This document shows, piece after piece, positions 1,695-47,040 of a stretch of 64,000 nt of DNA. Below the pieces are notes generated by a model. The model did not search any database, was not told where the DNA came from, and saw only the letters and a list, made by a program, of their open reading frames with translations. Made by a program: the position numbers and the translations under genes. The stretch is from a virus (lineage: Duplodnaviria; Caudoviricetes). Each line of letters starts with the position of its first letter. Position 1 is the first letter of the stretch. The DNA lies in IMG/VR virus record IMGVR_UViG_3300027819_000006; one strand, written 5' to 3'.

Positions 1695-1799
1695 AATAAA
1701 AATGCCAAGTATTGAACCTCAAATAGACTATGTCTATAAAGATACTTGGCAAATAGATAACATCTATTTGAGGTTCATATATAAATATATTGTGAGATT
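1687..1799 (-). promoter_or_regulatory. Structured leader upstream of tnpB (interleaved inverted repeats plus start-codon-sequestering arm)
   Basis: Perfect inverted pairs 1703-1712/1742-1751 (10 bp), 1713-1727/1763-1777 (15 bp), 1687-1698/1788-1799 (12 bp, covers the GTG start); AATATATTTAT motif at about 1781-1791. Confidence 0.75.
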
Positions 1800-1988
1800 A
1801 GAAAAAGACAAAAAGGTTAAATTTTTACATTTATTTTACATAATTTTACAGAATATAGTTACTAGTTATAATATTTATGAAAGTTGACGCTTGTTGAATT
1901 GTATCAAACTGAGATGAATTCTTTGTAACAATATTTTCTCCCCAATCTGAATCATAGCTCACTGATACTTTCACGCTGAAACTCCTTG

Positions 1989-2546
1989 TTAAATCAAAAC
2001 TTTTTGTTTAATCTGTTTTCTAGCTATTAACTCTGTTCGCATAATATCTTTATCTGTCCAGAGGTATTTTCTGAAAGTGTTAGATTTCAGAACAAAATCT
2101 GTATTTATCAAACCTTGATCATGATACAATTTAGTCCCATCTTTGCAAAAATATTCAAACCAATCATCCCCCAACTGCGTTTGGTGAGTTGGATCGCGGC
2201 GAAACGCAATATCTCCAAATGGTACTTCTATAGTTAGTAAAGCATCATGTTTCATAACTCTATATATTTCATTCATCAAAAATATGAAAGGAGTTAATTT
2301 TTCTATGTTGCCTTCTGAGTCTTGAACATATACAATTTTAGCTGTGTGTTCTAAACCATCAAATATATTTACTTTATCTATAGAACTGTCTAAATTTGGT
2401 AACGGCTGAAATCCAAGATTTAGCTTGAAAAATAGACAGTTTTCAGGTTTAGATTTAGGCTGAACTATATCTATACCAATAGTTTGATAACCTTCTTCTT
2501 CTCTAAAGTTGCTCCCTACAAAAAGCTCGAGCTTGATTTTATCCAT
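1989..2546 (-). CDS. Class I SAM-dependent methyltransferase (type 11-like)
   Basis: LELFVG...IGIDI, LP..DSSIDKV...LEH, MNEIYRVMK...LTIEVP pattern. Confidence 0.7.
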   Translation of the reverse strand: MDKIKLELFVGSNFREEEGYQTIGIDIVQPKSKPENCLFFKLNLGFQPLPNLDSSIDKVNIFDGLEHTAKIVYVQDSEGNIEKLTPFIFLMNEIYRVMKHDALLTIEVPFGDIAFRRDPTHQTQLGDDWFEYFCKDGTKLYHDQGLINTDFVLKSNTFRKYLWTDKDIMRTELIARKQIKQKVLI

Positions 2547-3046
2547 TAATTTATTCCCAATTTCTGTTCTATTAATTTTCTTGTAATATAGTGTAAATTA
2601 AATTTGTAACAATATTCTATATACCATTGTTGTATAGTATTTTTATTCTTTTTAGCTTTTGCAGCACCTTTCCAATCACATATCATTTCTTCTACATATT
2701 TTTCTGGTATTTCTAATGCTATACACTTATCATACTCTTCATCTTCTTCAATATCAATTTCTAATGGCATAATCCAATATTGCCAATGATGTTTATTTCT
2801 TGCAAAATGTAAAAATACTGCTCTATCAAATTTATCACCAGAATTATGTGTCGAATTATATACTTTCTTGCTTCTATTTCCTGCACTTTTACCATAAAAA
2901 TATTCTGAATATGCTAAAAATTCTGATGGACAAAAAGACGAAATATCATGAATTAATCCCAGCAATGGTCTACCAATTTTGCACATTTCTAAAAAAACAT
3001 ACCATTTATGAATTAATCGATATCTTAAGTGTTTTAAATATTTCAT
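2546..3046 (-). CDS. DUF5662-like putative HD-type protein
   Basis: HK...HD.S.F...H..RNKHHWQYW...EMICDW pattern. Confidence 0.55.
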   Translation of the reverse strand: MKYLKHLRYRLIHKWYVFLEMCKIGRPLLGLIHDISSFCPSEFLAYSEYFYGKSAGNRSKKVYNSTHNSGDKFDRAVFLHFARNKHHWQYWIMPLEIDIEEDEEYDKCIALEIPEKYVEEMICDWKGAAKAKKNKNTIQQWYIEYCYKFNLHYITRKLIEQKLGIN

Positions 3047-3109
3047 TTTTAACTAGTCTCAAATTGATTGGATTGCTTAGCATCCCTTGAATCGCTTAGC
3101 GTCTTTAAT

Positions 3110-4045
3110 TTACACCTTTTTATTTTTCAACATTTTTCTCAATGTTCTTACCAACTGCTTCCTTGCTTGATTCATTCTTTTGGTCTTTAAATCTCTTCTC
3201 TTCCTACGTATTGGCTTTAATCCTTGAGCAATCCTATCTTCATTGATCTTCTTTCTATTTTCTTCTTTGTCAATTTTCTTCTGTTCTCTGTTCTGTATAT
3301 CAATTAAAACAAGCTTATTTCTCTGTTCTGTAATATAGTCTAATAAATGATTTGATAAATAAGCAGATTTGCAAATTCCAGGAGTATTGCCAAGAAATTC
3401 AGAAGTTTTTGTAACGATCAGTTTTATTTCCTTGCTCAAATCTACTTTTTTAAGAGGAAGCTCTTTATCTTTGATAAAATCTTCATATATGCAGAAAGCT
3501 GTGTAGTTTGCTGCTAATGTTCGAAAATCTTTTGTAGTGAATATTTTGCCTATATTCTTCTTTAAATACTTCTTTATGCTTTTATCTGTGATATTTAGCC
3601 ATAAATCTGTTGATGATTCTTCATAAAATTTATGACCATATTCAATTAAAATTTTATCATCAGAAGTTATAAATTGGCTTACAACTTTTTTTCCTACAAA
3701 ATCTAGTATGATATGATTGTCATAAAATAGAATATGTTCCTTTTTCAGAGTAGAAGCTCCAAAAGTTTGAACAAATTCGCCTTCATGTCCTTTAACTACC
3801 GCTGTATAACCTTCAGCTGAGCCCTCATTTCCCACACGAATTCCGGTTTTGCAGAGTAGATATATAGCATATGCTTCTTTTGATCCAGTTTTAATATCTT
3901 CTACAATCTCGGGTTCAATTTTTGTCCAAACTTCAGCAAGCTTGTTTACTCTATTAAATTTAGAAGCTTTCTTATCCTTCTGCTTAATTCTATTGCTTTT
4001 AGAGAAAAATTCTACCTCTCTACCATTGAATATCAGTTTTGACAT
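3110..4045 (-). CDS. DNA topoisomerase IB (bacterial/viral type)
   Basis: TGIRVGNE, DFVGKK, KDFRT, LGNTPGICKSAY catalytic-region motifs. Confidence 0.9.
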   Translation of the reverse strand: MSKLIFNGREVEFFSKSNRIKQKDKKASKFNRVNKLAEVWTKIEPEIVEDIKTGSKEAYAIYLLCKTGIRVGNEGSAEGYTAVVKGHEGEFVQTFGASTLKKEHILFYDNHIILDFVGKKVVSQFITSDDKILIEYGHKFYEESSTDLWLNITDKSIKKYLKKNIGKIFTTKDFRTLAANYTAFCIYEDFIKDKELPLKKVDLSKEIKLIVTKTSEFLGNTPGICKSAYLSNHLLDYITEQRNKLVLIDIQNREQKKIDKEENRKKINEDRIAQGLKPIRRKRRDLKTKRMNQARKQLVRTLRKMLKNKKV

Positions 4046-4098
4046 TTTTCTCTCTATTTAATAATAACACATTGTTTATGATTAAATATAAACAAATA

Positions 4099-5247
4099 TC
4101 ATACAAATGTAAACAACTTTTTTTCATCTTTTAATAAATCTTCTTTAAACAAAATATAGAATATTTTTGATTCTTTATCGTATTTTTCAATAAAAATTTG
4201 CATTTTCTCTTTAGATTCTGGTCTCATCCAGCCTTTAACTTCTTCTATTCTTATCAAATTATTATTTTCATCATAGATAAAGAAATCAGGAGTATAAGTT
4301 GTATTTTCTAATTTATAAGTTATTTCTTCATATTTCCAATTTGCAGATATAGAATCTAGAAATTGAGCTCTTTCCAGCTCATAGGTAGATTTCATCTTTA
4401 TTTCAGCATTGTTTCTATCTGCATAAACAACTCGATGCCACTTAGGAGATACTCCATACATAGGATTTCCAGAACCAGATCTATCTATAGACCATTTTTG
4501 TTTTTGTTCGTCTGAAAAAATATATCCATACATGCTATTTTTGCTACCAGTCATAGGATTAACACGATGATTTTCTTTATGTTTATTAATTAATTTTAAT
4601 AATTTATTTTCTGCAATTTCCTCTCCATATTTAATTACCCAAGCATCAAAAAAAGACATTCCAAACATTGGGTTTTTGTCTCCTTTTAATGATTCAGAAA
4701 TGTTTCTCTTATGAGAATCTGAAAGTTTTTTATCTTGCCAAACACCAGGCCTACCCATTAAAGATTTAGATATTTTTTCTTTTACTCCAGGCTTATGTAC
4801 AGGATTTCTATCTCCAAGTTTACAACAAACTCTGCACATATTTAAATCTGCAGAAACTACATTAGTGCATCCTTCTTCAACACAATAGAAAGTTTTAGAA
4901 GCTTTACATTCATCACAAATAAAAATTTTTCTATGACCTTTAAGCATTTTATCTCCACATACTGTACATCTACAAGTATTTTTCTCAGACATATAAAATT
5001 GATGTTTTGAACATCTACTACCTTCATTTTTTACTTTATTGTTGCAATTTTCTATTAAGCATTTATATTCTATTTTATTTCTGCAATCTCCACAAATACC
5101 AATTTTATTAGTTCCGCCTATAGGATTTATTTTACAAGTTTTGCATATTAATGGAGGTTTTCCACTCTTACATCTTTTACAGATATTACTTTTATAATTA
5201 ACATTAAGTTTTTTAGGGCACGATATACAGTATCTATCTTCTTGCAT
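4099..5247 (-). CDS. Free-standing homing-type endonuclease: Cys-rich repeats + NUMOD3-like repeats + PD-(D/E)xK domain
   Basis: Many CxxC pairs, HKRNISESLKGDKNPMFG repeats, C-terminal YTPDF...EEVKGW. Confidence 0.75.
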   Translation of the reverse strand: MQEDRYCISCPKKLNVNYKSNICKRCKSGKPPLICKTCKINPIGGTNKIGICGDCRNKIEYKCLIENCNNKVKNEGSRCSKHQFYMSEKNTCRCTVCGDKMLKGHRKIFICDECKASKTFYCVEEGCTNVVSADLNMCRVCCKLGDRNPVHKPGVKEKISKSLMGRPGVWQDKKLSDSHKRNISESLKGDKNPMFGMSFFDAWVIKYGEEIAENKLLKLINKHKENHRVNPMTGSKNSMYGYIFSDEQKQKWSIDRSGSGNPMYGVSPKWHRVVYADRNNAEIKMKSTYELERAQFLDSISANWKYEEITYKLENTTYTPDFFIYDENNNLIRIEEVKGWMRPESKEKMQIFIEKYDKESKIFYILFKEDLLKDEKKLFTFV

Positions 5248-5260
5248 TACCTCTCCAAAA

Positions 5261-5370
5261 AAAAATTGTCTATAGTAGCACCCTAATAGACTGAAGTCAG
5301 AAGGCTATAGACAATTTTTCAAATATATTTATGTTTTGTCTATTAGTGTGCTTATAATAAATATATTTGA
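5261..5370 (-). promoter_or_regulatory. Structured leader upstream of endonuclease 4099..5247
   Basis: Inverted pairs 5261-5275/5305-5319 (15/15) and 5277-5291/5338-5352 (14/15); 17-mer ataataaatatatttga at 5354-5370. Confidence 0.75.
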
Positions 5371-5603
5371 TCAAGAAATAAATGCATTTGACCTATCCCT
5401 GTCTCTGCCATTAGCAGATATCCATATCCCTCTTTTGAACCAGCTTCTATATCTTTAATTATCTTTGGTTCAATAGTTCCCCAGTCTCTAGCAATTTTTC
5501 CTACACGTACAAACTTTGCAATTTTCTTGTCTTTTTGCTTTATTCTACCATTTGGATCAGAGAAGAATACTGCTGGCCTATTTTCGTAAGTGAAGTTGAT
5601 CAT
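5352..5603 (-). pseudogene. Truncated 5' paralogue of topoisomerase IB
   Basis: Aligns to the N-terminal ~70 aa of 3110..4045 (FFS, RIKQKDKK, IEP, GSKE, TGI) and diverges exactly where the catalytic Arg (TGI|R) would be. Confidence 0.8.
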
Positions 5604-5620
5604 TTAGTAATTCTCCTCTA

Positions 5621-5655
5621 TTTTGGTATGTTTAAATATAAATTTCATACCAAAA
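5621..5655 (-). promoter_or_regulatory. Hairpin with TATATTTA in the loop, just upstream of the RBS of the truncated topoisomerase copy
   Basis: ttttggtatg (5621-5630) / cataccaaaa (5646-5655); an 8-bp hairpin (4072-4079/4088-4095) overlapping the same motif precedes the intact copy. Confidence 0.5.
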
Positions 5656-5669
5656 GTAAAGGATTATTT

Positions 5670-6359
5670 TCAAAAATTACACTGACATCCTTTTAACATT
5701 AAAATGTCCATATCGCAAATACAGCCCCAAACTCTATTTGTTTTCTCTAATTGAGCTTTTATGGATTCTTTAACATTTGTAACTTCATATCGAGAAAAAA
5801 TTTTATCTGATAATTCTGCATGAGGTATAAATGGAATATAGATACTTAATATATGTCTATTATCTAATCTCTTACAAATAGAATCTATAAACTTAGTTTC
5901 ATCATCTATTTCAAAATCTAACATTCTTGTTTCAGCTGTTATTGCTGTAGCTATTACTCTATCTTTACAAGTTTCTTTGTCATACATAAATAAAACTCTA
6001 GATGGCAAATTCATACTTTCATAACCATATATTATATTTTTATTTGTCATAATTTGAAGATGATAAACTAATTTTATTATATGACTATACAGTTTATTTG
6101 TGTAATCTGAAGTAAAACATCGATTTAATTGATCATAATCAGCCAAGAATCTTTCTTGATTTCTTAATAGAGTTATAGCTGTGCATTTAGAATATTCTGT
6201 CAGTTTTTCATATTCTTCACAATTTAAAACATTTTTCAATTTAATTTTAAGTTCTTCTATAGCATTCTCATTCAAACTATAACATTCTATATCAACTATC
6301 ATATGCTGTATTTTTGAATATATGCATTTCAACCAAGGATGTATTATATCTATATTCAT
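5670..6359 (-). CDS. Hypothetical protein with C-terminal CxC-x9-CxC motif
   Basis: Ends CICDMDILMLKGCQCNF. Confidence 0.6.
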   Translation of the reverse strand: MNIDIIHPWLKCIYSKIQHMIVDIECYSLNENAIEELKIKLKNVLNCEEYEKLTEYSKCTAITLLRNQERFLADYDQLNRCFTSDYTNKLYSHIIKLVYHLQIMTNKNIIYGYESMNLPSRVLFMYDKETCKDRVIATAITAETRMLDFEIDDETKFIDSICKRLDNRHILSIYIPFIPHAELSDKIFSRYEVTNVKESIKAQLEKTNRVWGCICDMDILMLKGCQCNF

Positions 6360-6362
6360 TTT

Positions 6363-7148
6363 CTATTTAACAAATTGTTCTAAAATTTGTCCTTTCGTTA
6401 TGTTATATTGTTTTAGCAATTGCTTTTTATATTCCATATTATGCGTGTGCAGTAAAGAAATTTCAGGTGTCCACTCTAGCCGGGGTAATTCTTTGCGCTG
6501 CATGTCGTGCCAATAATATTCTAATAGATGTCGATTTATTTCTATATTAAACTCTTCATCATTTAGCATTGTGAAATTTATGATTCTGTCTCTAAGTGTA
6601 TATAGAATATATTCTTCTGTATTTTCAAATCCTAAAGATGTTGGTGCGTATTTATCAATTAGCTTTTGCTGTCTTAATCGAAAATCACAAACTTTAAATT
6701 GAAAAGGTAATATTCTGTGCAAAAATTTTCTTCTAAACATCATACAATCTGGTGCTACCAATTCATTGCAATCTATTCCTGCTGAGAATTGCTTACCAGA
6801 ATCTATAAAATTTTGAACAGCTTTTACAAATCCTTGTTCTGTTAAAAAATGCACATCAAAATTATGTATAACTACTGTATCTCTGTAGCCAGCATTAGCA
6901 TAAGACAGCCCTTCGTTTATTTCTGAAAGTGCTCCTGTAGCAGGATTTTTGTCAATCGGCATAGAAATAAATGCATTCTCAAATACTCCTGAGCAAATCT
7001 TTGTAAGATCTCCGTTGTAAACTGTTACATGTTGCAGATCTTTGTTGAAAGAATAGTTGCTAATTATATCAATTCCAGTATAATATTCAAATACTTTGTT
7101 GACAGATCCAATTCTGATCAAAATTATATTTTTAGGATCAAACATCAT
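6363..7148 (-). CDS. Hypothetical protein, possibly GT-A-like glycosyltransferase
   Basis: Weak: GLSYA...VVIHNFDVHF resembles a DxD region; located in the glycosylation cluster. Confidence 0.3.
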   Translation of the reverse strand: MMFDPKNIILIRIGSVNKVFEYYTGIDIISNYSFNKDLQHVTVYNGDLTKICSGVFENAFISMPIDKNPATGALSEINEGLSYANAGYRDTVVIHNFDVHFLTEQGFVKAVQNFIDSGKQFSAGIDCNELVAPDCMMFRRKFLHRILPFQFKVCDFRLRQQKLIDKYAPTSLGFENTEEYILYTLRDRIINFTMLNDEEFNIEINRHLLEYYWHDMQRKELPRLEWTPEISLLHTHNMEYKKQLLKQYNITKGQILEQFVK

Positions 7149-27979: not shown

Positions 27980-28092
27980 TTCTCAAATAAAAAGACTTAC
28001 AGTGTGGATAAGAAATAATAGCAAAGCTATTTTCACTGTAAGTCTTTGTAAACTACTATTATTTCTTATCCAATAATAAATATATTTGAGAA
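27980..28092 (-). promoter_or_regulatory. Structured leader upstream of endonuclease 27110..27973
   Basis: Perfect inverted pairs 27991-28004/28034-28047 (14 bp), 28005-28021/28056-28072 (17 bp), 27980-27989/28083-28092 (10 bp, covers the RBS region); 17-mer ataataaatatatttga at 28073-28089. Confidence 0.8.
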
Positions 28093-28105: not shown

Positions 28106-30484
28106 TTATTTTAGTTTACATTTTATAAAAAATCCCTTATCGATATCTTGTAAATATTCATATTCTAAATTTACTAAATTTAACAAATATTCTATAGCTT
28201 TAGGAGTTGGTAGCCATACGTGCTCTCCCTTACCTATGGTTTGCCATCTCTGCATATGTTCTTGTGCTTCTATGCATCTAAAATTTGGACATCCTATAAA
28301 TAATAGTGAATTTTCATGCATCAAATTTTTACAATTATTTAAGAATTCTAAAGGATTTGTATGCTCTATTACTTGATCAGAAAATAGAATATCAAATTTT
28401 TTATCAGTAAATAGTTCAAAACTACCATATAGAAGCTTGTTTTTTAATTCTGGGAATAATTCTAATCCTTTATCTATGCTGGGCTTATTTATATCTACTC
28501 CTACAGCATCATAGCCTTCTTCTATAGCAGCTTTTACAACCAGTCCGCAGTTAGCTCCAATATCTATAAAAGAACCTGAATTTTTGTACTGCTTAGCTTT
28601 CAAAACATTGGGTTTAGAATGATTATTAAAAACTTCTTGCCATCTAAAACTATATTCATCAGATATATTCTTCTCTTGATCTATATGTATATTGTAATCA
28701 TTTTTCTGTATGAAATCTAATTCCTCATTTACATAGTATTGACTTCCTGGAATATTAAAATAGAATTTAGATTTTTTGCTATTATCTATCATTAGCTTAG
28801 GTTTTTCTAAGAATTTATCAATAGCTGCTATAACATGCTCTGGTTCGATGCTAGACATGCATATAAATTGACTAGTGTTTACGCATTTTGGAATAAAAGT
28901 TAATCCACCATTGTCTAACAAGTTAAAAAATTGTGAATGTTTGCATGAAATGCATTCTAGAGCATTATTCTGTATATAGTATATATATTCTCTGTTAGCA
29001 TTGCTTAAATAAGTAGAAGCTGCTCCATTGATAGCGATAGAGGGAATATTAAATGATCTTGCTATATGAATTGGACCATTATCTCCACCTAAGAAAAATT
29101 CGCTATGTTTAATTAGAGATAATAGTGTTTTTAAATCGACTTTATGATACTTGCTGTCTGTCAATTCAGAAAAATCAGATAGACCAGGCTCTATTACTTT
29201 ATGACCTTTTTTTTGTAAATATTCTATTATAGATTTATATTTAGCTTGTCCTAAAGTTTTTCCTCCCCACCCGCTACCATCTGCTACTACCACAACATAG
29301 GGTTTTAAATGAGAAAAATCTTCATATAGATGATTACTATTATCTAGTTCAGCATATTTATCTTTTGGATTATTAAACGTTATATCTGCTGTTCTAGCAT
29401 AGGAATCAATGAATAATTTATTTTTTGAGCTCTCATATGATAGATCGAGAGAGATTTTTAACTGATGATTAGTATTGTTTAAATGATCTTCTAATATTAA
29501 TTTGTCATCTATTTTTACTATTTCATCGGGCTTATGAGCAAAATATTCTACTATTTCAGGTTTAGCTGTATAGAAAGTAATTTTGCATCCTTCATATTTT
29601 TGTCTTAATTTCTTTACTATCGGCTCACATAGCAATATATCTCCAATACCAACTACACGAGAAATTCCAATGTCAACTATTCCAGATGTCTGTTTTAGTA
29701 TATCTAATATTCTATTATTGTGTTCTGTAAATGCAGCATTTCCCATCAGAGTTGGAAATGTTCTCTTTATTTCTATATCATCATCTTTTTCTATAATTTC
29801 TTCTTTAATGTCTACAGATTTAGGTGCTCCAATTTGCTTAGCTATATCTTCCAAAGACATCTGCTGTTTTCCACCACCAAATTTGACCCATTGAACAACA
29901 GTAATTTCTGCTGGTATGCAACCTCTATATCCTTTTTCTGCCCATTGCTTCAGTACAAGCCCAGGCATGAATAGAGGCTGTCCATCTTTTACTTCTACAC
30001 ATTTATTCCAGTCTACTTCTACATCTTTGAAATGACAGATTTCATCTAAACATATTTCTTCTATTTTTGGAGGATTTGATATTCTGAAACCAATTGTATT
30101 CAGAGGATGATCTGGAATATCTACATTTCTATATTCGCAATGTCCAAGAGCATATTTACAGTGCTTATTATTTGCAAAATCTTCTAAATGTGCAGCTATA
30201 TGTCTTGGAAACCACATTATGTTATTGACAGTCTTGTAAAAAATAATATCAGCAGAAGCTAACTTAAGTGCCTCATTGAATAGAGAGACACTCTCGTCAG
30301 TTTTAATAAATCTTATATTTAGAGATATTTCTTTACACTTCTCTTTAACAGTATCTAAATCTCTTATAGAAGACACAATTAAATCTATATTTTTATGAGT
30401 CTGTTCAAACACATTCTTGATAGAGTTTTGAACATGTATGTCATCTGAATTTTCAGCTATTAATATGACGGTTACTAAATCCAA
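28106..30484 (-). CDS. Three-domain enzyme: GT2-like + GT9-like + class I methyltransferase
   Basis: N-terminal VTVIL...S...FNEAL; middle GIGDILL...LRQKY, FFLGGDNGP.HIA; C-terminal IDIGANCG, GVDI, FDI...VIEH. Confidence 0.7.
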   Translation of the reverse strand: MDLVTVILIAENSDDIHVQNSIKNVFEQTHKNIDLIVSSIRDLDTVKEKCKEISLNIRFIKTDESVSLFNEALKLASADIIFYKTVNNIMWFPRHIAAHLEDFANNKHCKYALGHCEYRNVDIPDHPLNTIGFRISNPPKIEEICLDEICHFKDVEVDWNKCVEVKDGQPLFMPGLVLKQWAEKGYRGCIPAEITVVQWVKFGGGKQQMSLEDIAKQIGAPKSVDIKEEIIEKDDDIEIKRTFPTLMGNAAFTEHNNRILDILKQTSGIVDIGISRVVGIGDILLCEPIVKKLRQKYEGCKITFYTAKPEIVEYFAHKPDEIVKIDDKLILEDHLNNTNHQLKISLDLSYESSKNKLFIDSYARTADITFNNPKDKYAELDNSNHLYEDFSHLKPYVVVVADGSGWGGKTLGQAKYKSIIEYLQKKGHKVIEPGLSDFSELTDSKYHKVDLKTLLSLIKHSEFFLGGDNGPIHIARSFNIPSIAINGAASTYLSNANREYIYYIQNNALECISCKHSQFFNLLDNGGLTFIPKCVNTSQFICMSSIEPEHVIAAIDKFLEKPKLMIDNSKKSKFYFNIPGSQYYVNEELDFIQKNDYNIHIDQEKNISDEYSFRWQEVFNNHSKPNVLKAKQYKNSGSFIDIGANCGLVVKAAIEEGYDAVGVDINKPSIDKGLELFPELKNKLLYGSFELFTDKKFDILFSDQVIEHTNPLEFLNNCKNLMHENSLLFIGCPNFRCIEAQEHMQRWQTIGKGEHVWLPTPKAIEYLLNLVNLEYEYLQDIDKGFFIKCKLK

Positions 30485-33068: not shown

Positions 33069-34235
33069 CTATCCGATCTTTATTGACTTAACGATATGCT
33101 GTCCAGGCAGAGAACATAAATAATTCTGCATTATTTCAGTAGCAGACAAACTTCTATTAAATATTCTAGTAAGCCCTATAACTCCTGTCAGTCCTGAATT
33201 AGACAAATCTAATGATTTACCAATCACCAATCTTGAATTTGCTATCAGTTGTGGAATTGATGTAAAAGCACTATAAGAAGCACATGCTCCATTTATATAG
33301 ATTGTAGCACCAGAAAAACTTCCAGTACTTCCATCAAATGTAGCAGCAACATGATACCATTTGCCTAAAGCCAAAGGACCAGCAGTGAAACTATTAGTCC
33401 CTATGTTCAATTTTAATACACCTGAATCTTCTTTTAATCCCAAAGTTTCAGTAGCACCAGATCCTATAGACATTATCTGGCTGTGACTGGTAGCAGCAAA
33501 TTTCACAAAGCATAATACAGACATTCCTGATAATGCTGTGCTAACAGGATTGAATAAAGCTGATGACGCACTTTCCATCCAAGATTTACCATCAAATCTA
33601 AATCCGCCATCACAAGGAGAATAAGTCCAACCTGTCACAGTAGCACTTAATCCATCTCCTGAAGCGCAACCTTTAATACTAGCATTCAGAGAATTTCCTG
33701 ATCTATCTGCTACAGCAGTTAAAGAAGTACTCAATTCTTGTCTGTTATATGTATAATATAATACAAGACTTGATCCAGTTACACCATTAGAGGGTAGTTG
33801 ATCAATATTTGGTCTTATTCCTGTACCAAAATAATTTAGAAGACCTAGTCTCTGAAAACCACTTAGAGAAATATCTCCAAAATAAACTCCTAAATCGTTT
33901 ATAATGACACTCAATTTATTATAATTAGACATAGCTGTACTGATAATATATTGAGTAGAGTCAGAAGTCATGCTTCCTTGCTGAGCTGTATGAGACTGAC
34001 AATACAAAGCTTGAGAACCTGTAACTGAAGATAGACCGGCTGTAGTTCCAATAGTCAAATATAGAGTTCCGCTGCCACCATCATTAGTATTGCTTCTGAT
34101 TCTGCCTACAGAGATAAAATTATTTCCTGTAAGAGCATCAGATTGTACTAAATTGAATATAGGCTGCTCATTGAAAGATCCGGTATTACCAAGGAACTTT
34201 AGTTTTGTCTCAATAATGAAATTGTCAGTCTGCAT
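33069..34235 (-). CDS. Virion protein with LamG/concanavalin A-like domain
   Basis: FDG...W.HVAATFDG...IYING...IG...G.IG..RIFNRSLS..EI..NY; Ser/Thr/Gly-rich. Confidence 0.75.
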   Translation of the reverse strand: MQTDNFIIETKLKFLGNTGSFNEQPIFNLVQSDALTGNNFISVGRIRSNTNDGGSGTLYLTIGTTAGLSSVTGSQALYCQSHTAQQGSMTSDSTQYIISTAMSNYNKLSVIINDLGVYFGDISLSGFQRLGLLNYFGTGIRPNIDQLPSNGVTGSSLVLYYTYNRQELSTSLTAVADRSGNSLNASIKGCASGDGLSATVTGWTYSPCDGGFRFDGKSWMESASSALFNPVSTALSGMSVLCFVKFAATSHSQIMSIGSGATETLGLKEDSGVLKLNIGTNSFTAGPLALGKWYHVAATFDGSTGSFSGATIYINGACASYSAFTSIPQLIANSRLVIGKSLDLSNSGLTGVIGLTRIFNRSLSATEIMQNYLCSLPGQHIVKSIKIG

Positions 34236-35037
34236 TTATTTCACCATTATACCAAATTTCTATAAATTTACATTTAAGAAAATTTTTTATTTCATTTTTT
34301 CTTGTTTTATCTTTTTCAATTGCATATTCATGTCTTTTTTCATAGTATTCTATAACAATATTTTTTTCTTTATCATATCCATCTACAAAATATCCTAATT
34401 CTTTTATATGAAATTCTCCACCGTTCATTCCATGCTGAAAATTATAGTTATACTGCTTACCATATTCATCAATAATTTCACAAGCTTTGGGACTGAATAT
34501 AGGAAATACTTTACCTATTTTTTCTAAAAATGCTATAGCTTTTATTTTTTTTTTAATTTTAGTTTCGTCAGATTGTTTAAATTTCATTCCTTTGTTCCAA
34601 GCTATTTGTCCCTTATGAGCTTTACTATTTTTCAATCTGTGTTCTTTAGTTTGAACTCTGCCTGTCATAGCTTTCGATCTTTTAATATTGGATTCTTCCG
34701 AATTCCAAACTTCATTATTATTTTTTCTACTTCTAATTCTTTTATTGTTTCTTTCTAAATCTTTTTTATAATTTTTCTTATTTCCTTCACTTATATTCTT
34801 TTTATGCTCTTCTGTTTGAGGACTCGATTTTCTTTTCTTACCTTATTGTCTACAACCATCTCTATTTCCTATTTTTGAACAACTTCTACATAATGTTGAA
34901 AAAACATTAATTGTATTGTTACACAAATCATTACTACATTTCTTTGTATTAATTCTATGTTTACCACAATACTCTATACCCCTCTTTTCTGAATTTATAT
35001 TTATTTTTTTATTACAATTTTCAGTTTTACATTTCAT
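34225..35037 (-). pseudogene. Endonuclease (Cys-rich + NUMOD3-like + PD-(D/E)xK-like) interrupted by one in-frame TAA at 34843-34845
   Basis: ORFs 34843..35037 and 34225..34668 are in the same frame; the 58 codons between them are open (GKKRKSSPQTEEHKKNISEG...); C-terminal FVDGYD...VIEYYE..H. Confidence 0.8.
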
Positions 35038-35055
35038 GGTGTTTCTCTAAATTAA

Positions 35056-35150
35056 AATTGCTAAGTATTGGATCTTAAAAGACTATATGTCTAAAGATGC
35101 TTAGCAATTAGAATTTAAGTCTTTTAAGATCCAATAATAAATATAACTGA
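35056..35150 (-). promoter_or_regulatory. Structured leader upstream of endonuclease 34225..35037
   Basis: Perfect inverted pairs 35056-35065/35100-35109 (10 bp) and 35066-35084/35118-35136 (19 bp); ataataaatataactga at 35134-35150. Confidence 0.75.
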
Positions 35151-35286: not shown

Positions 35287-35916
35287 TCATATTTTTTTAA
35301 ATTTTTTGCAAATATTTCTATATAATGCTGAGTTTATTTTTATAGCATAAAATCCACTAGAATTTGTTATCATTATTTCATGTTTACTTTTTATTGCTCT
35401 ATCCAAATTTTCTGAAGAATATGTATTTACATGATCTTTGAAAAAATCATATCCAGATTTTAATTCTTCCTCATATGTTTCTCTGGGTAATCTATGTATT
35501 AAATCATAATCATCTCTATTCTTTTCGACATAATCAACATAATGAATTAAAGAATCACTAAAAGCTCTACTCCATAAGTATTTAAAATCATCTATCATGA
35601 ATATTCTATATATTGTCCCATGTAGATTGGCTGTCACTTTTGATCCTGTACAAAAAGTTGAATCACTCATTTTTATAAATCCAAAATATTTAGCAGCATT
35701 ATCAAATCCTTTTACAAATCCTTTATTATCTTGTAATCCTGTTGGTATATTTTTTGCAATTATAGATTTGAAAAAAAATTCTCTTGTAACAGATATTCCT
35801 TTGTATAGAGGCAAATTTTTAGACTCAGTTAAAAAATGTGAACAATCTTTTGTAATAAGATTGTATACTTCTTGAACATTAACAGATAATATTTCTATAG
35901 CTTCTTTTAGTTTCAT
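35287..35916 (-). CDS. MKLK-leader protein, possible ADP-ribosyltransferase-like fold
   Basis: LPLYKG...FCTGS...A..HG..Y.IF pattern; paralogous to 46440..47040. Confidence 0.4.
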   Translation of the reverse strand: MKLKEAIEILSVNVQEVYNLITKDCSHFLTESKNLPLYKGISVTREFFFKSIIAKNIPTGLQDNKGFVKGFDNAAKYFGFIKMSDSTFCTGSKVTANLHGTIYRIFMIDDFKYLWSRAFSDSLIHYVDYVEKNRDDYDLIHRLPRETYEEELKSGYDFFKDHVNTYSSENLDRAIKSKHEIMITNSSGFYAIKINSALYRNICKKFKKI

Positions 35917-46439: not shown

Positions 46440-47040
46440 CTAATCCTTTCTATTTTTTATTATTTCTGTATATAGTTCTTTTTCATATATAACTTCTACT
46501 GCATAATATTTGTCACAAGTAATCATTACTTCATATTTCGATCTTATAGCTCTTACTAAATTTTTATCTGTATAGTATTCCTTTACTTCATCCCACCATC
46601 TCTTTATTTGCTCTATATATCATGTAGATTTACATACTCCAATCCTACATCTCTACCAGTATCTTTTATAAATTTTTCAAGATAGTCTTTACATCTTGTA
46701 CTATATGTGAGAAATGAAATGTTTCTATAGGAAAAATTAAGTGTACAGCTCCATATTCAGCAGCTTTTTTAGAATCACCTGTACATAGTATAGAATTAGA
46801 TCTATGAGCTATAAAATTTTTGCTCAATTCACTGTCAACATAATTAAAGAAAAGTTCATGCTTAGTCTTTGATCTCCTATCTTTTCTGACTGTTCTTATT
46901 AATTCTCCTCTTTCTGTTCCTCTATATAATGGTAACAATTTTGATTAGTCTAAAAACTTTGAACAGTCTACGATTATAGATTTAGCTAATTGTTTTATGT
47001 CAGTGCTATTTATAGCTTCTTTTAATAGTATTTTTGTCAT
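46440..47040 (-). pseudogene. Disrupted paralogue of 35287..35916 (in-frame TAA plus frameshifts)
   Basis: DCSKFLD*SKLLPLYRG vs DCSHFLTESKNLPLYKG; a later frame gives NLVRAIRSKYEVMIT vs NLDRAIKSKHEIMIT. Confidence 0.65.

Follow-up and report, generated by a model that had tools for sequence, protein, structure and literature searches.

Why should a phage keep the opening part of one topoisomerase gene in front of an endonuclease gene and a complete, diverged copy of the same gene behind it? The question is raised by positions 3110-5655 of a 64,000-nucleotide stretch of DNA, here called the window, taken from the IMG/VR virus record IMGVR_UViG_3300027819_000006 (Duplodnaviria; Caudoviricetes). 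The window belongs to a contig of about 272 kb from an uncultured large phage, assembled from groundwater metagenomes, and all of its genes lie on the minus strand, as do all features of the locus described below. The order on this strand is a truncated type IB topoisomerase (topo IB) gene, a structured leader, an endonuclease gene and a complete topo IB gene, each element being found where a preliminary description of this DNA had placed it. The reading towards which we incline, with a confidence somewhat above even, is that the locus is the scar of one-sided, illegitimate, intron-less homing, by which the endonuclease cassette and at least the 5' part of a foreign topoisomerase gene were imported.

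The broken and the intact topoisomerase genes

The truncated copy lies in an open reading frame (ORF) of 83 amino acids (5352-5603), the first 70 codons of which (5394-5603) are the 5' remnant of a second topo IB allele and end with T-G-I. In a BLASTP comparison these 70 residues matched residues 1-69 of the intact copy with 36 identities (51%, E = 3e-21), in agreement with the earlier estimate that roughly half of the residues are identical over about 70 positions; at the DNA level the two gene starts are about 60% identical and share no long identical run. The last codon homologous to topoisomerase is ATA (Ile, 5396-5394), and the next one, GGT, stands where the family has an invariant arginine; the break at the catalytic TGI/R that had been claimed from inspection is thereby confirmed. 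The rest of the ORF, GQMHLFLDQIYLL followed by the stop (5352-5393), consists in the alignments of 13 unrelated codons that read into the cassette. Between the last topoisomerase codon and the first module of the cassette there is the pentanucleotide GGTCA (5393-5389), the module beginning at 5388, after these 5 nt, and the fragment therefore ends at the left edge of a recognisable, self-contained cassette. The leader had been said to follow within about 25 nt of the break; the structured leader is real, but the cassette, through this module, is reached sooner.

The break also falls where the longest conserved stretch of the family's N-terminal half, TGIR-I/V-GNE-x-SAEGY, begins. The frame of the remnant is open and its residues match 34 of the 45 majority-consensus columns, so that it probably belonged to a working gene not long ago.

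A disruption at the corresponding place was seen in a distant topo IB gene on a human gut metagenome contig of about 2.5x coverage (L064:3990-4060). This gene is frameshifted right after H-T-G-I: the six codons for R-I-G-N-E-G that its subfamily possesses are missing and an extra T stands before S-A-E-G-Y, equivalent to a 17-nt deletion from the catalytic-Arg codon. The deletion has the same boundary as the break of the fragment. Two origins can be suggested, imperfect repair at a nuclease target common to both genes or an assembly error at low coverage.

The intact copy (3110-4045) encodes a type IB topoisomerase of 311 amino acids (Pfam PF01028, Topoisom_I, E = 1.9e-16), and a sequence search of the PDB matched it to the solved TopIB structures of vaccinia/variola virus and Deinococcus. 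In an alignment with eleven relatives the residues R70, K119/K120, R175, N220 and Y229 were invariant. The last three align with KDLRT and GHTPSISKRAY of the vaccinia enzyme and with GNTPAV..SY of that from Deinococcus (catalytic Arg, His/Asn and Tyr), and the type IB catalytic set of Arg, Lys, Arg, His/Asn and Tyr appears to be present in the conserved order. R70, encoded by CGT (3838-3836), lies in the RxGNE motif and is taken here to be the first catalytic arginine; the assignment leans on the motif because the PDB alignments begin at residue 93.

Each of the two copies is preceded by signals of its own. Upstream of the fragment, a promoter-like element made of TTTACT and TATATTTA (5640-5633) is followed by a hairpin of 8-10 bp and then by the ribosome-binding site (RBS) GAGGAG (whole element 5624-5660). 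Upstream of the intact copy lies a sigma-70-like promoter (4085-4113; TTTACA, 17 nt, TATATT), which has 10 of 12 matches and is the best of the region. The 11-mer TTTATATTTAA occurs twice in the window, once before each topoisomerase copy, and a TTTAC-type hexamer and/or a TATATT-type box precedes the gene in most of the closer relatives. Since each copy has a promoter of the type also found in relatives, each of them is a complete 5' transcription unit, and the ancestral type is one and the same. The preliminary description had given both copies a hairpin overlapping TATATTTA. This holds for the fragment, where the hairpin is stable (-10.1 kcal/mol alone), but hardly for the intact copy, where it is marginal (-4.5 kcal/mol) and absent from the minimum free energy (MFE) fold of the region. 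The motif overlaps the sigma-70-like promoter (TTTAC(A/T), spacer, TATATT), and the feature is more aptly called a promoter than a hairpin.

At its 3' end (4099-4113) the nuclease ORF overlaps the promoter of the intact copy, its five final codons and stop running through the -35 hexamer and part of the spacer; the nuclease gene and the topoisomerase promoter are therefore physically interlocked. Because the two topoisomerase copies share no more than 51% of their amino acids and about 60% of their DNA, and because each has its own orthologous promoter, they are diverged alleles or orthologues and not a recent duplicate. Their divergence and separate promoters seem to fit the import of foreign DNA better than a local duplication.

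The nuclease cassette

The cassette begins with the module AATGCATTT-N9-TCAAATATATTTAT (5357-5388), which is probably its own promoter. The pattern has two exact matches in the window, where 0.02 would be expected by chance, and none of 100 shuffled sequences reached two. The second copy (28107-28076), also brought out by an alignment of the leaders, precedes another nuclease gene (27973-27110), and there too the module is followed by interleaved repeats.

The leader proper (5261-5370), delimited by repeat search and folding, contains three interleaved inverted repeats with arms of 14-15 nt that are 93-100% complementary: a/a' (5370-5357 with 5332-5319), b/b' (5352-5338 with 5291-5277) and c/c' (5319-5305 with 5275-5261). 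Its MFE is -38.5 kcal/mol (z = -3.6 against shuffles). The MFE fold holds two helices, of which the second, c/c', has nine consecutive U behind it and, further on, the nuclease RBS, GGAGAGG, while the b/b' helix is mutually exclusive with this fold and costs about 7 kcal/mol when forced. That c/c' and the U-run form a terminator is a suggestion; a terminator scan did not flag them, because the stem is AT-rich and the loop long. With a stable RNA structure lying between a dedicated promoter-like module and the nuclease RBS, the leader appears to have the T4-type layout.

Three details of the two leaders may be recorded here. The stop codon of the fragment ORF falls between arms a and b, and translation of the remnant could bias the choice of helix. 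The leader copy at 27988-28072 has two helices, compared with three in 5261-5370. In the second cassette the module starts within the stop codon (28106-28108) of the upstream gene, which encodes a glycosyltransferase/methyltransferase of 792 amino acids, with no spare bases between them.

The cassette gene itself (4099-5247) encodes a protein of 382 amino acids. The N-terminal third is rich in cysteine, with about eight CxxC-type pairs in residues 7-143 (zinc ribbons), and Pfam gave matches to NUMOD3 (E = 1.3e-10) and, weakly and in the C-terminal domain, to DUF1064. In PHROG, the C-terminal domain also matched families that bear the annotation Holliday junction resolvase (E = 3.6e-9) or endonuclease. 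It carries the residues of a PD-(D/E)xK motif (P-D at 320-321, E336 and K338); among 14 aligned homologues the P-D and K columns were invariant and the E column nearly so. A model of this domain, with a predicted local distance difference test (pLDDT) score of 84, had as its best fold matches exclusively nucleases of the restriction-endonuclease fold, namely Bax1, TnsA (template modelling score, TM, 0.54-0.56) and T7 endonuclease I. None of these fell below E = 1e-3 (best 4e-3), so that support from the fold is moderate, and a sequence search of solved structures with the whole protein returned chance zinc-finger matches only. Relatives elsewhere, with identities of up to 42%, are free-standing genes, one of them located directly upstream of a ribonucleotide reductase gene. 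These data support the view of the protein as a free-standing enzyme of homing type, equipped with its own promoter-like module, leader, RBS and ATG, and its designation as an endonuclease in the preliminary description is borne out by NUMOD3, the nuclease motif and the free-standing relatives.

At least three paralogues of the nuclease are present in the window, and a self-tblastn comparison revealed no other gene remnant next to any of them. A probable decayed or frameshifted nuclease gene occupies 34225-35150. It comprises an ORF with a weak NUMOD3 match (34225-34668), a tblastn match to the 382-residue nuclease in a stretch without a long ORF (34777-34938) and a leader-like motif with two mismatches (35150-35134) beside interleaved repeats (35048-35136). 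Near it, a protein of 209 amino acids (35287-35916) matches two adjacent pieces of DNA some 11 kb away, in 46455-47025, with 30% and 39% identity, which may be a paralogue or a split copy. A solo TnpB-like gene (510-1799; Cas12f1-like TNB domain, E = 3.4e-17) is preceded by TATATTTA (1789-1782) and by a 25-nt inverted repeat (1713-1777), an arrangement resembling the nuclease leaders.

Relatives of the locus and its possible origin

The related topoisomerase loci available for comparison are distant, with at most 56% protein identity, and the comparison is one between lineages and not between strains. The closest proteins in a search of 5.8 billion clustered sequences had 47-56% identity to the intact copy. 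Cassette and remnant were both absent from about 50 related topoisomerase loci, the gene being uninterrupted in these, the closest relatives included, and the cassette, missing there at the same position, has a sporadic distribution. A scan of metagenome contigs with the family alignment gave 50 more topoisomerase loci, none of which showed a fragment together with an intact gene. Phage GenBank records contained distant topo IB genes only; with the intact copy as query no relatives of the phage were found among viral contigs, and a search for longer proteins matching the 70-residue fragment found none. In four public groundwater runs there was no joint skipping the cassette and no cassette-free variant, but these runs supplied only short contig pieces, which are not evidence of absence.

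The flanking genes gave a similar picture. On the left, upstream side the locus is bordered by a gene for a protein of 229 amino acids (5670-6359), which had no match in Pfam or PHROG and no relatives in scans of viral and metagenome contigs. On the right, downstream side lies a gene for a DUF5662 protein (2546-3046; PF18907, E = 2.2e-30), whose matches in the search for relatives of the phage reached merely 31-37% identity and lacked synteny. The spacer between the gene for the 229-residue protein and the fragment ORF measures 66 nt and contains TTTACT...TATATTTA, the hairpin and the RBS GAGGAG, that between fragment ORF and nuclease measures 105 nt and is structured, and that between nuclease and intact topoisomerase measures 53 nt.

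Nuclease genes unrelated to the present one directly follow the topoisomerase gene in two other lineages. In one (L002-L005) an HNH protein gene overlaps the 3' end of the topoisomerase gene (L002:8893-9375, and likewise in L003-L005), and in the other (L033:753-1511) the gene encodes a protein of 252 amino acids with a DUF559 (Vsr-like) domain. As unrelated nucleases adjoin the gene in both, topo IB is suggested to be a recurrent landing zone for nuclease genes.

What the data establish is how the locus is built, where exactly the truncated gene breaks off, what the cassette is, that the two alleles have diverged, and that related topoisomerase loci lack the cassette. In the proposed course of events a self-contained cassette, made up of promoter, two-state hairpin leader and NUMOD3/PD-(D/E)xK endonuclease, would normally reside directly upstream of a topo IB gene. 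A double-strand break would have been made in a different, cassette-free topoisomerase allele, at or next to the TGIR-I/V-GNE codons; conserved blocks are the usual targets of homing endonucleases, and the remnant stops at the Arg70 codon, with 5 nt between it and the cassette. The downstream end, starting with the conserved block, would have been repaired from the cassette-bearing donor, and by this repair the cassette would have been copied in together with the donor topoisomerase promoter and codons 1-69 at the least, perhaps even the entire gene. The upstream end would have been joined illegitimately to the left edge of the cassette because the homology there (about 60% DNA identity) was too low, and the resident promoter with codons 1-69 would have been left as a dead remnant. 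That the break was made by this nuclease, the direction of transfer and the foreign share of the intact gene are the parts of this scheme that we infer.

Whether the fragment is the resident allele was examined by comparison with seven close cassette-free alleles. Cassette-free relatives do exist, as a check proposed in the preliminary description presupposed, but their 5' ends match the fragment with only 38-54% identity, compared with 39-47% for the intact N-terminus. In the majority-consensus columns where the two copies disagree, the fragment alone follows the consensus in nine and the intact copy alone in five (p = 0.42), so that the fragment is not significantly closer. A displaced part nearly identical to cassette-free relatives was thus not found, the best value of 54% reflecting sparse sampling and not being contrary evidence. 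The identity of N-termini was also regressed on that of the cores over 18 relatives (153 pairs, r = 0.85, standard deviation 0.061), and both N-termini fit as partners of the intact core, with root-mean-square residuals of 0.059 and 0.063. Neither at codon 70 nor at the cassette is there a step in GC content, GC content at third codon positions (GC3) or codon usage. Of the earlier claim that the endonuclease brought a replacement, supposedly cleavage-resistant 5' end, what stands is that the nuclease gene abuts a truncated allele and that the alleles are diverged; the restriction of the replacement to the gene start does not follow, as the regression fits both N-termini. A hybrid gene, replacement of the whole gene and a second copy present beforehand are all possible.

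Several of these results weigh against one-sided homing. The databases searched held no cassette-free genome close to the phage, the fragment is statistically no nearer to cassette-free alleles than the intact N-terminus is, and composition and codon usage reveal no boundary between foreign and native DNA at codon 70 or at the cassette. For random end-joining the join is unexpectedly precise, falling within 5 nt of a conserved cassette edge; the cassette, or the cassette with the gene start, may move as a discrete unit by a mechanism that is not understood. Finally, tandem intact topo IB genes without a nuclease occur in another large phage-like contig and two related ones (L071-L073), which means that the second topoisomerase copy need not have come with the cassette.

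It is tempting to speculate on what such a discrete unit would contain. As the fragment end (codon 69/70) coincides with the left boundary of the cassette, a hypothetical inserted unit of 1,555 nt can be drawn (3839-5393), consisting of the cassette, a portable foreign topoisomerase promoter with its RBS, and codons 1-69. It would insert at the catalytic-Arg codon of naive topo IB genes, rebuild a working hybrid from its own 5' end and the core of the host gene, and silence the original gene start. We regard this form of the homing scheme as doubtful; to our knowledge no gene-start-replacing homing element has been described in phages.

The strongest competitor of one-sided homing starts from the tandem genes just mentioned. 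The phage would have possessed two paralogues side by side and acquired nothing but the cassette, which landed at the Arg codon of the upstream one; what followed in that gene would later have been deleted. The two topo IB genes of L071-L073 (575 and 431 amino acids, both products with long N-terminal extensions and ETGIRPGN motifs; in L073 at about 1736-4771 of a 340-kb contig) are complete, diverged and 13 nt apart, with no nuclease between them, and in the present locus the native-looking promoters on both copies and the lack of any compositional sign of foreign origin agree with such a history. However, two events are needed, an insertion and a deletion of about 720 nt ending exactly at the boundary between cassette and promoter. 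Tandem pairs are moreover rare, being confined to one lineage among about 50 loci, which belongs to a distant, N-terminally extended subfamily, and this history appears unlikely to us.

The remnant might instead be baggage of the cassette. The nuclease would have broken a topoisomerase gene in another phage beforehand, and the topoisomerase promoter, codons 1-69 and cassette would then have moved as one block to a place upstream of a resident, intact topoisomerase gene, the fragment being the foreign part. This agrees with the tight 5-nt junction between fragment and cassette, recombination could have been anchored upstream by the similarity of the promoters and 5' ends, and GC and GC3 reach their maxima for the locus in the fragment (0.36 and 0.29), though over no more than 70 codons. 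Against this, the spacing to the gene for the 229-residue protein is normal and no second junction is visible. The interlocking of the nuclease 3' end with the -35 element of the intact copy points moreover to a long-standing association of the cassette with that copy and not with the fragment. We consider the baggage history distinctly improbable.

Since the fragment end and codon 70 of the intact copy would join in frame, and since phage group I introns do occur at catalytic-site codons, the 1.55 kb between fragment codon 69 and intact codon 70 could be imagined as a self-splicing intron that carries the nuclease, with alternative first exons and two isoforms. No intron or other RNA family of Rfam was detected at E <= 1 in 2500-6500, no placement of the splice sites combines U at the end of the 5' exon, G at the end of the intron and the frame T-G-I-R, and within the interval there is an entire promoter together with an RBS and a start. 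The intron was rejected on the first two of these grounds and is hardly credible. A chimera of two strains joined during assembly at a repeat, for which the repeated leader in the genome might speak, deserves next to no credence, given that the longest exact repeat common to the two leader copies is 17 nt, below assembler k-mers, that an independent Logan assembly of a public run shares 14,045 nt with the window, identical throughout and with the whole topoisomerase locus included, so that the arrangement is not an assembly artefact, and that the same intact protein occurs in four contigs with similar surroundings.

Comparison with known systems

If the locus arose by one-sided homing, its nearest counterparts are the free-standing nucleases of T-even phages. 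SegF (gene 56), SegG (gene 32) and MobE (nrdB) as a rule co-convert the neighbouring allele. As in these systems, the nuclease gene of the present phage is free-standing and lies beside its presumed target, and the adjacent allele of the donor would have travelled along. For T4, experiments have demonstrated homing that is one-sided and leaves illegitimate junctions (Parker et al. 1999, reviewed in PMC2988022). A break presumed to fall in conserved coding sequence, and an illegitimate junction where one flank is without homology, are likewise common to the T-even nucleases and the present locus (PMC2988022), and a structured leader with its own promoter precedes the nuclease gene as it does in I-TevI-III, segB and mobE of Aeh1 (PMC2988022). 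The T-even enzymes differ in being of the GIY-YIG or HNH type, whereas the present nuclease combines PD-(D/E)xK with zinc ribbons and has topo IB as its presumed target.

By carrying neighbouring alleles along, free-standing homing endonucleases are believed to remodel phage genomes, and in natural products co-conversion usually wipes out the tracks. Unlike in T-even homing, the displaced allele has here been kept as an in-frame 5' remnant, and its survival pins the probable point of cleavage or insertion within 5 nt, at the catalytic-Arg codon of topo IB. The locus would also be an instance, from nature, of one-sided illegitimate homing with alleles whose divergence precludes recombination; this process is as a rule known from crosses alone. 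It offers a testable pair of enzyme and target for a poorly studied architecture of zinc ribbons, NUMOD3 and PD-(D/E)xK.

Genes split by homing endonuclease genes, such as nrdA of Aeh1 by mobE and the T4 genes 39 and 60 with mobA, form a second group. They resemble the present locus in that a nuclease gene lies within sequence that codes for a DNA-metabolism enzyme, beside a catalytic region. In the split genes, however, both pieces form a working enzyme, whereas the downstream topoisomerase of the phage is complete and the upstream piece redundant.

A likeness in the fate of the target gene is found among mobile ORFs of fungal mitochondria with replacement gene ends, described for atp6 of Allomyces macrogynus and for atp6, atp9, cox2 and nad3 of Glomus (PMC3630166). 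There too the inserted endonuclease ORF comes with a diverged version of the gene part that it displaces, the native version stays on alongside, and the DNA identity of the duplicated parts is low, 64-81% as compared with about 60% here (PMC3630166). In the fungi it is the 3' end that is replaced and the native C-terminus that is stranded downstream (PMC3630166). The phage locus would be the mirror image, with the 5' end, including promoter and RBS, replaced and the native N-terminus stranded upstream. A further difference is that in the fungi the direction of transfer is proven, the native remnants being 91-100% identical to relatives without the cassette, while the best value for the phage fragment is 54% (PMC3630166 for the fungal data). 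If the intact topoisomerase gene is a hybrid, replacement gene ends carried by endonucleases would extend from fungal mitochondria to phages and from the ends of genes to their starts. All of the known systems differ from the locus in part, and it may be regarded as a variant of the nuclease-driven gene replacement already known in T4 and in fungi.

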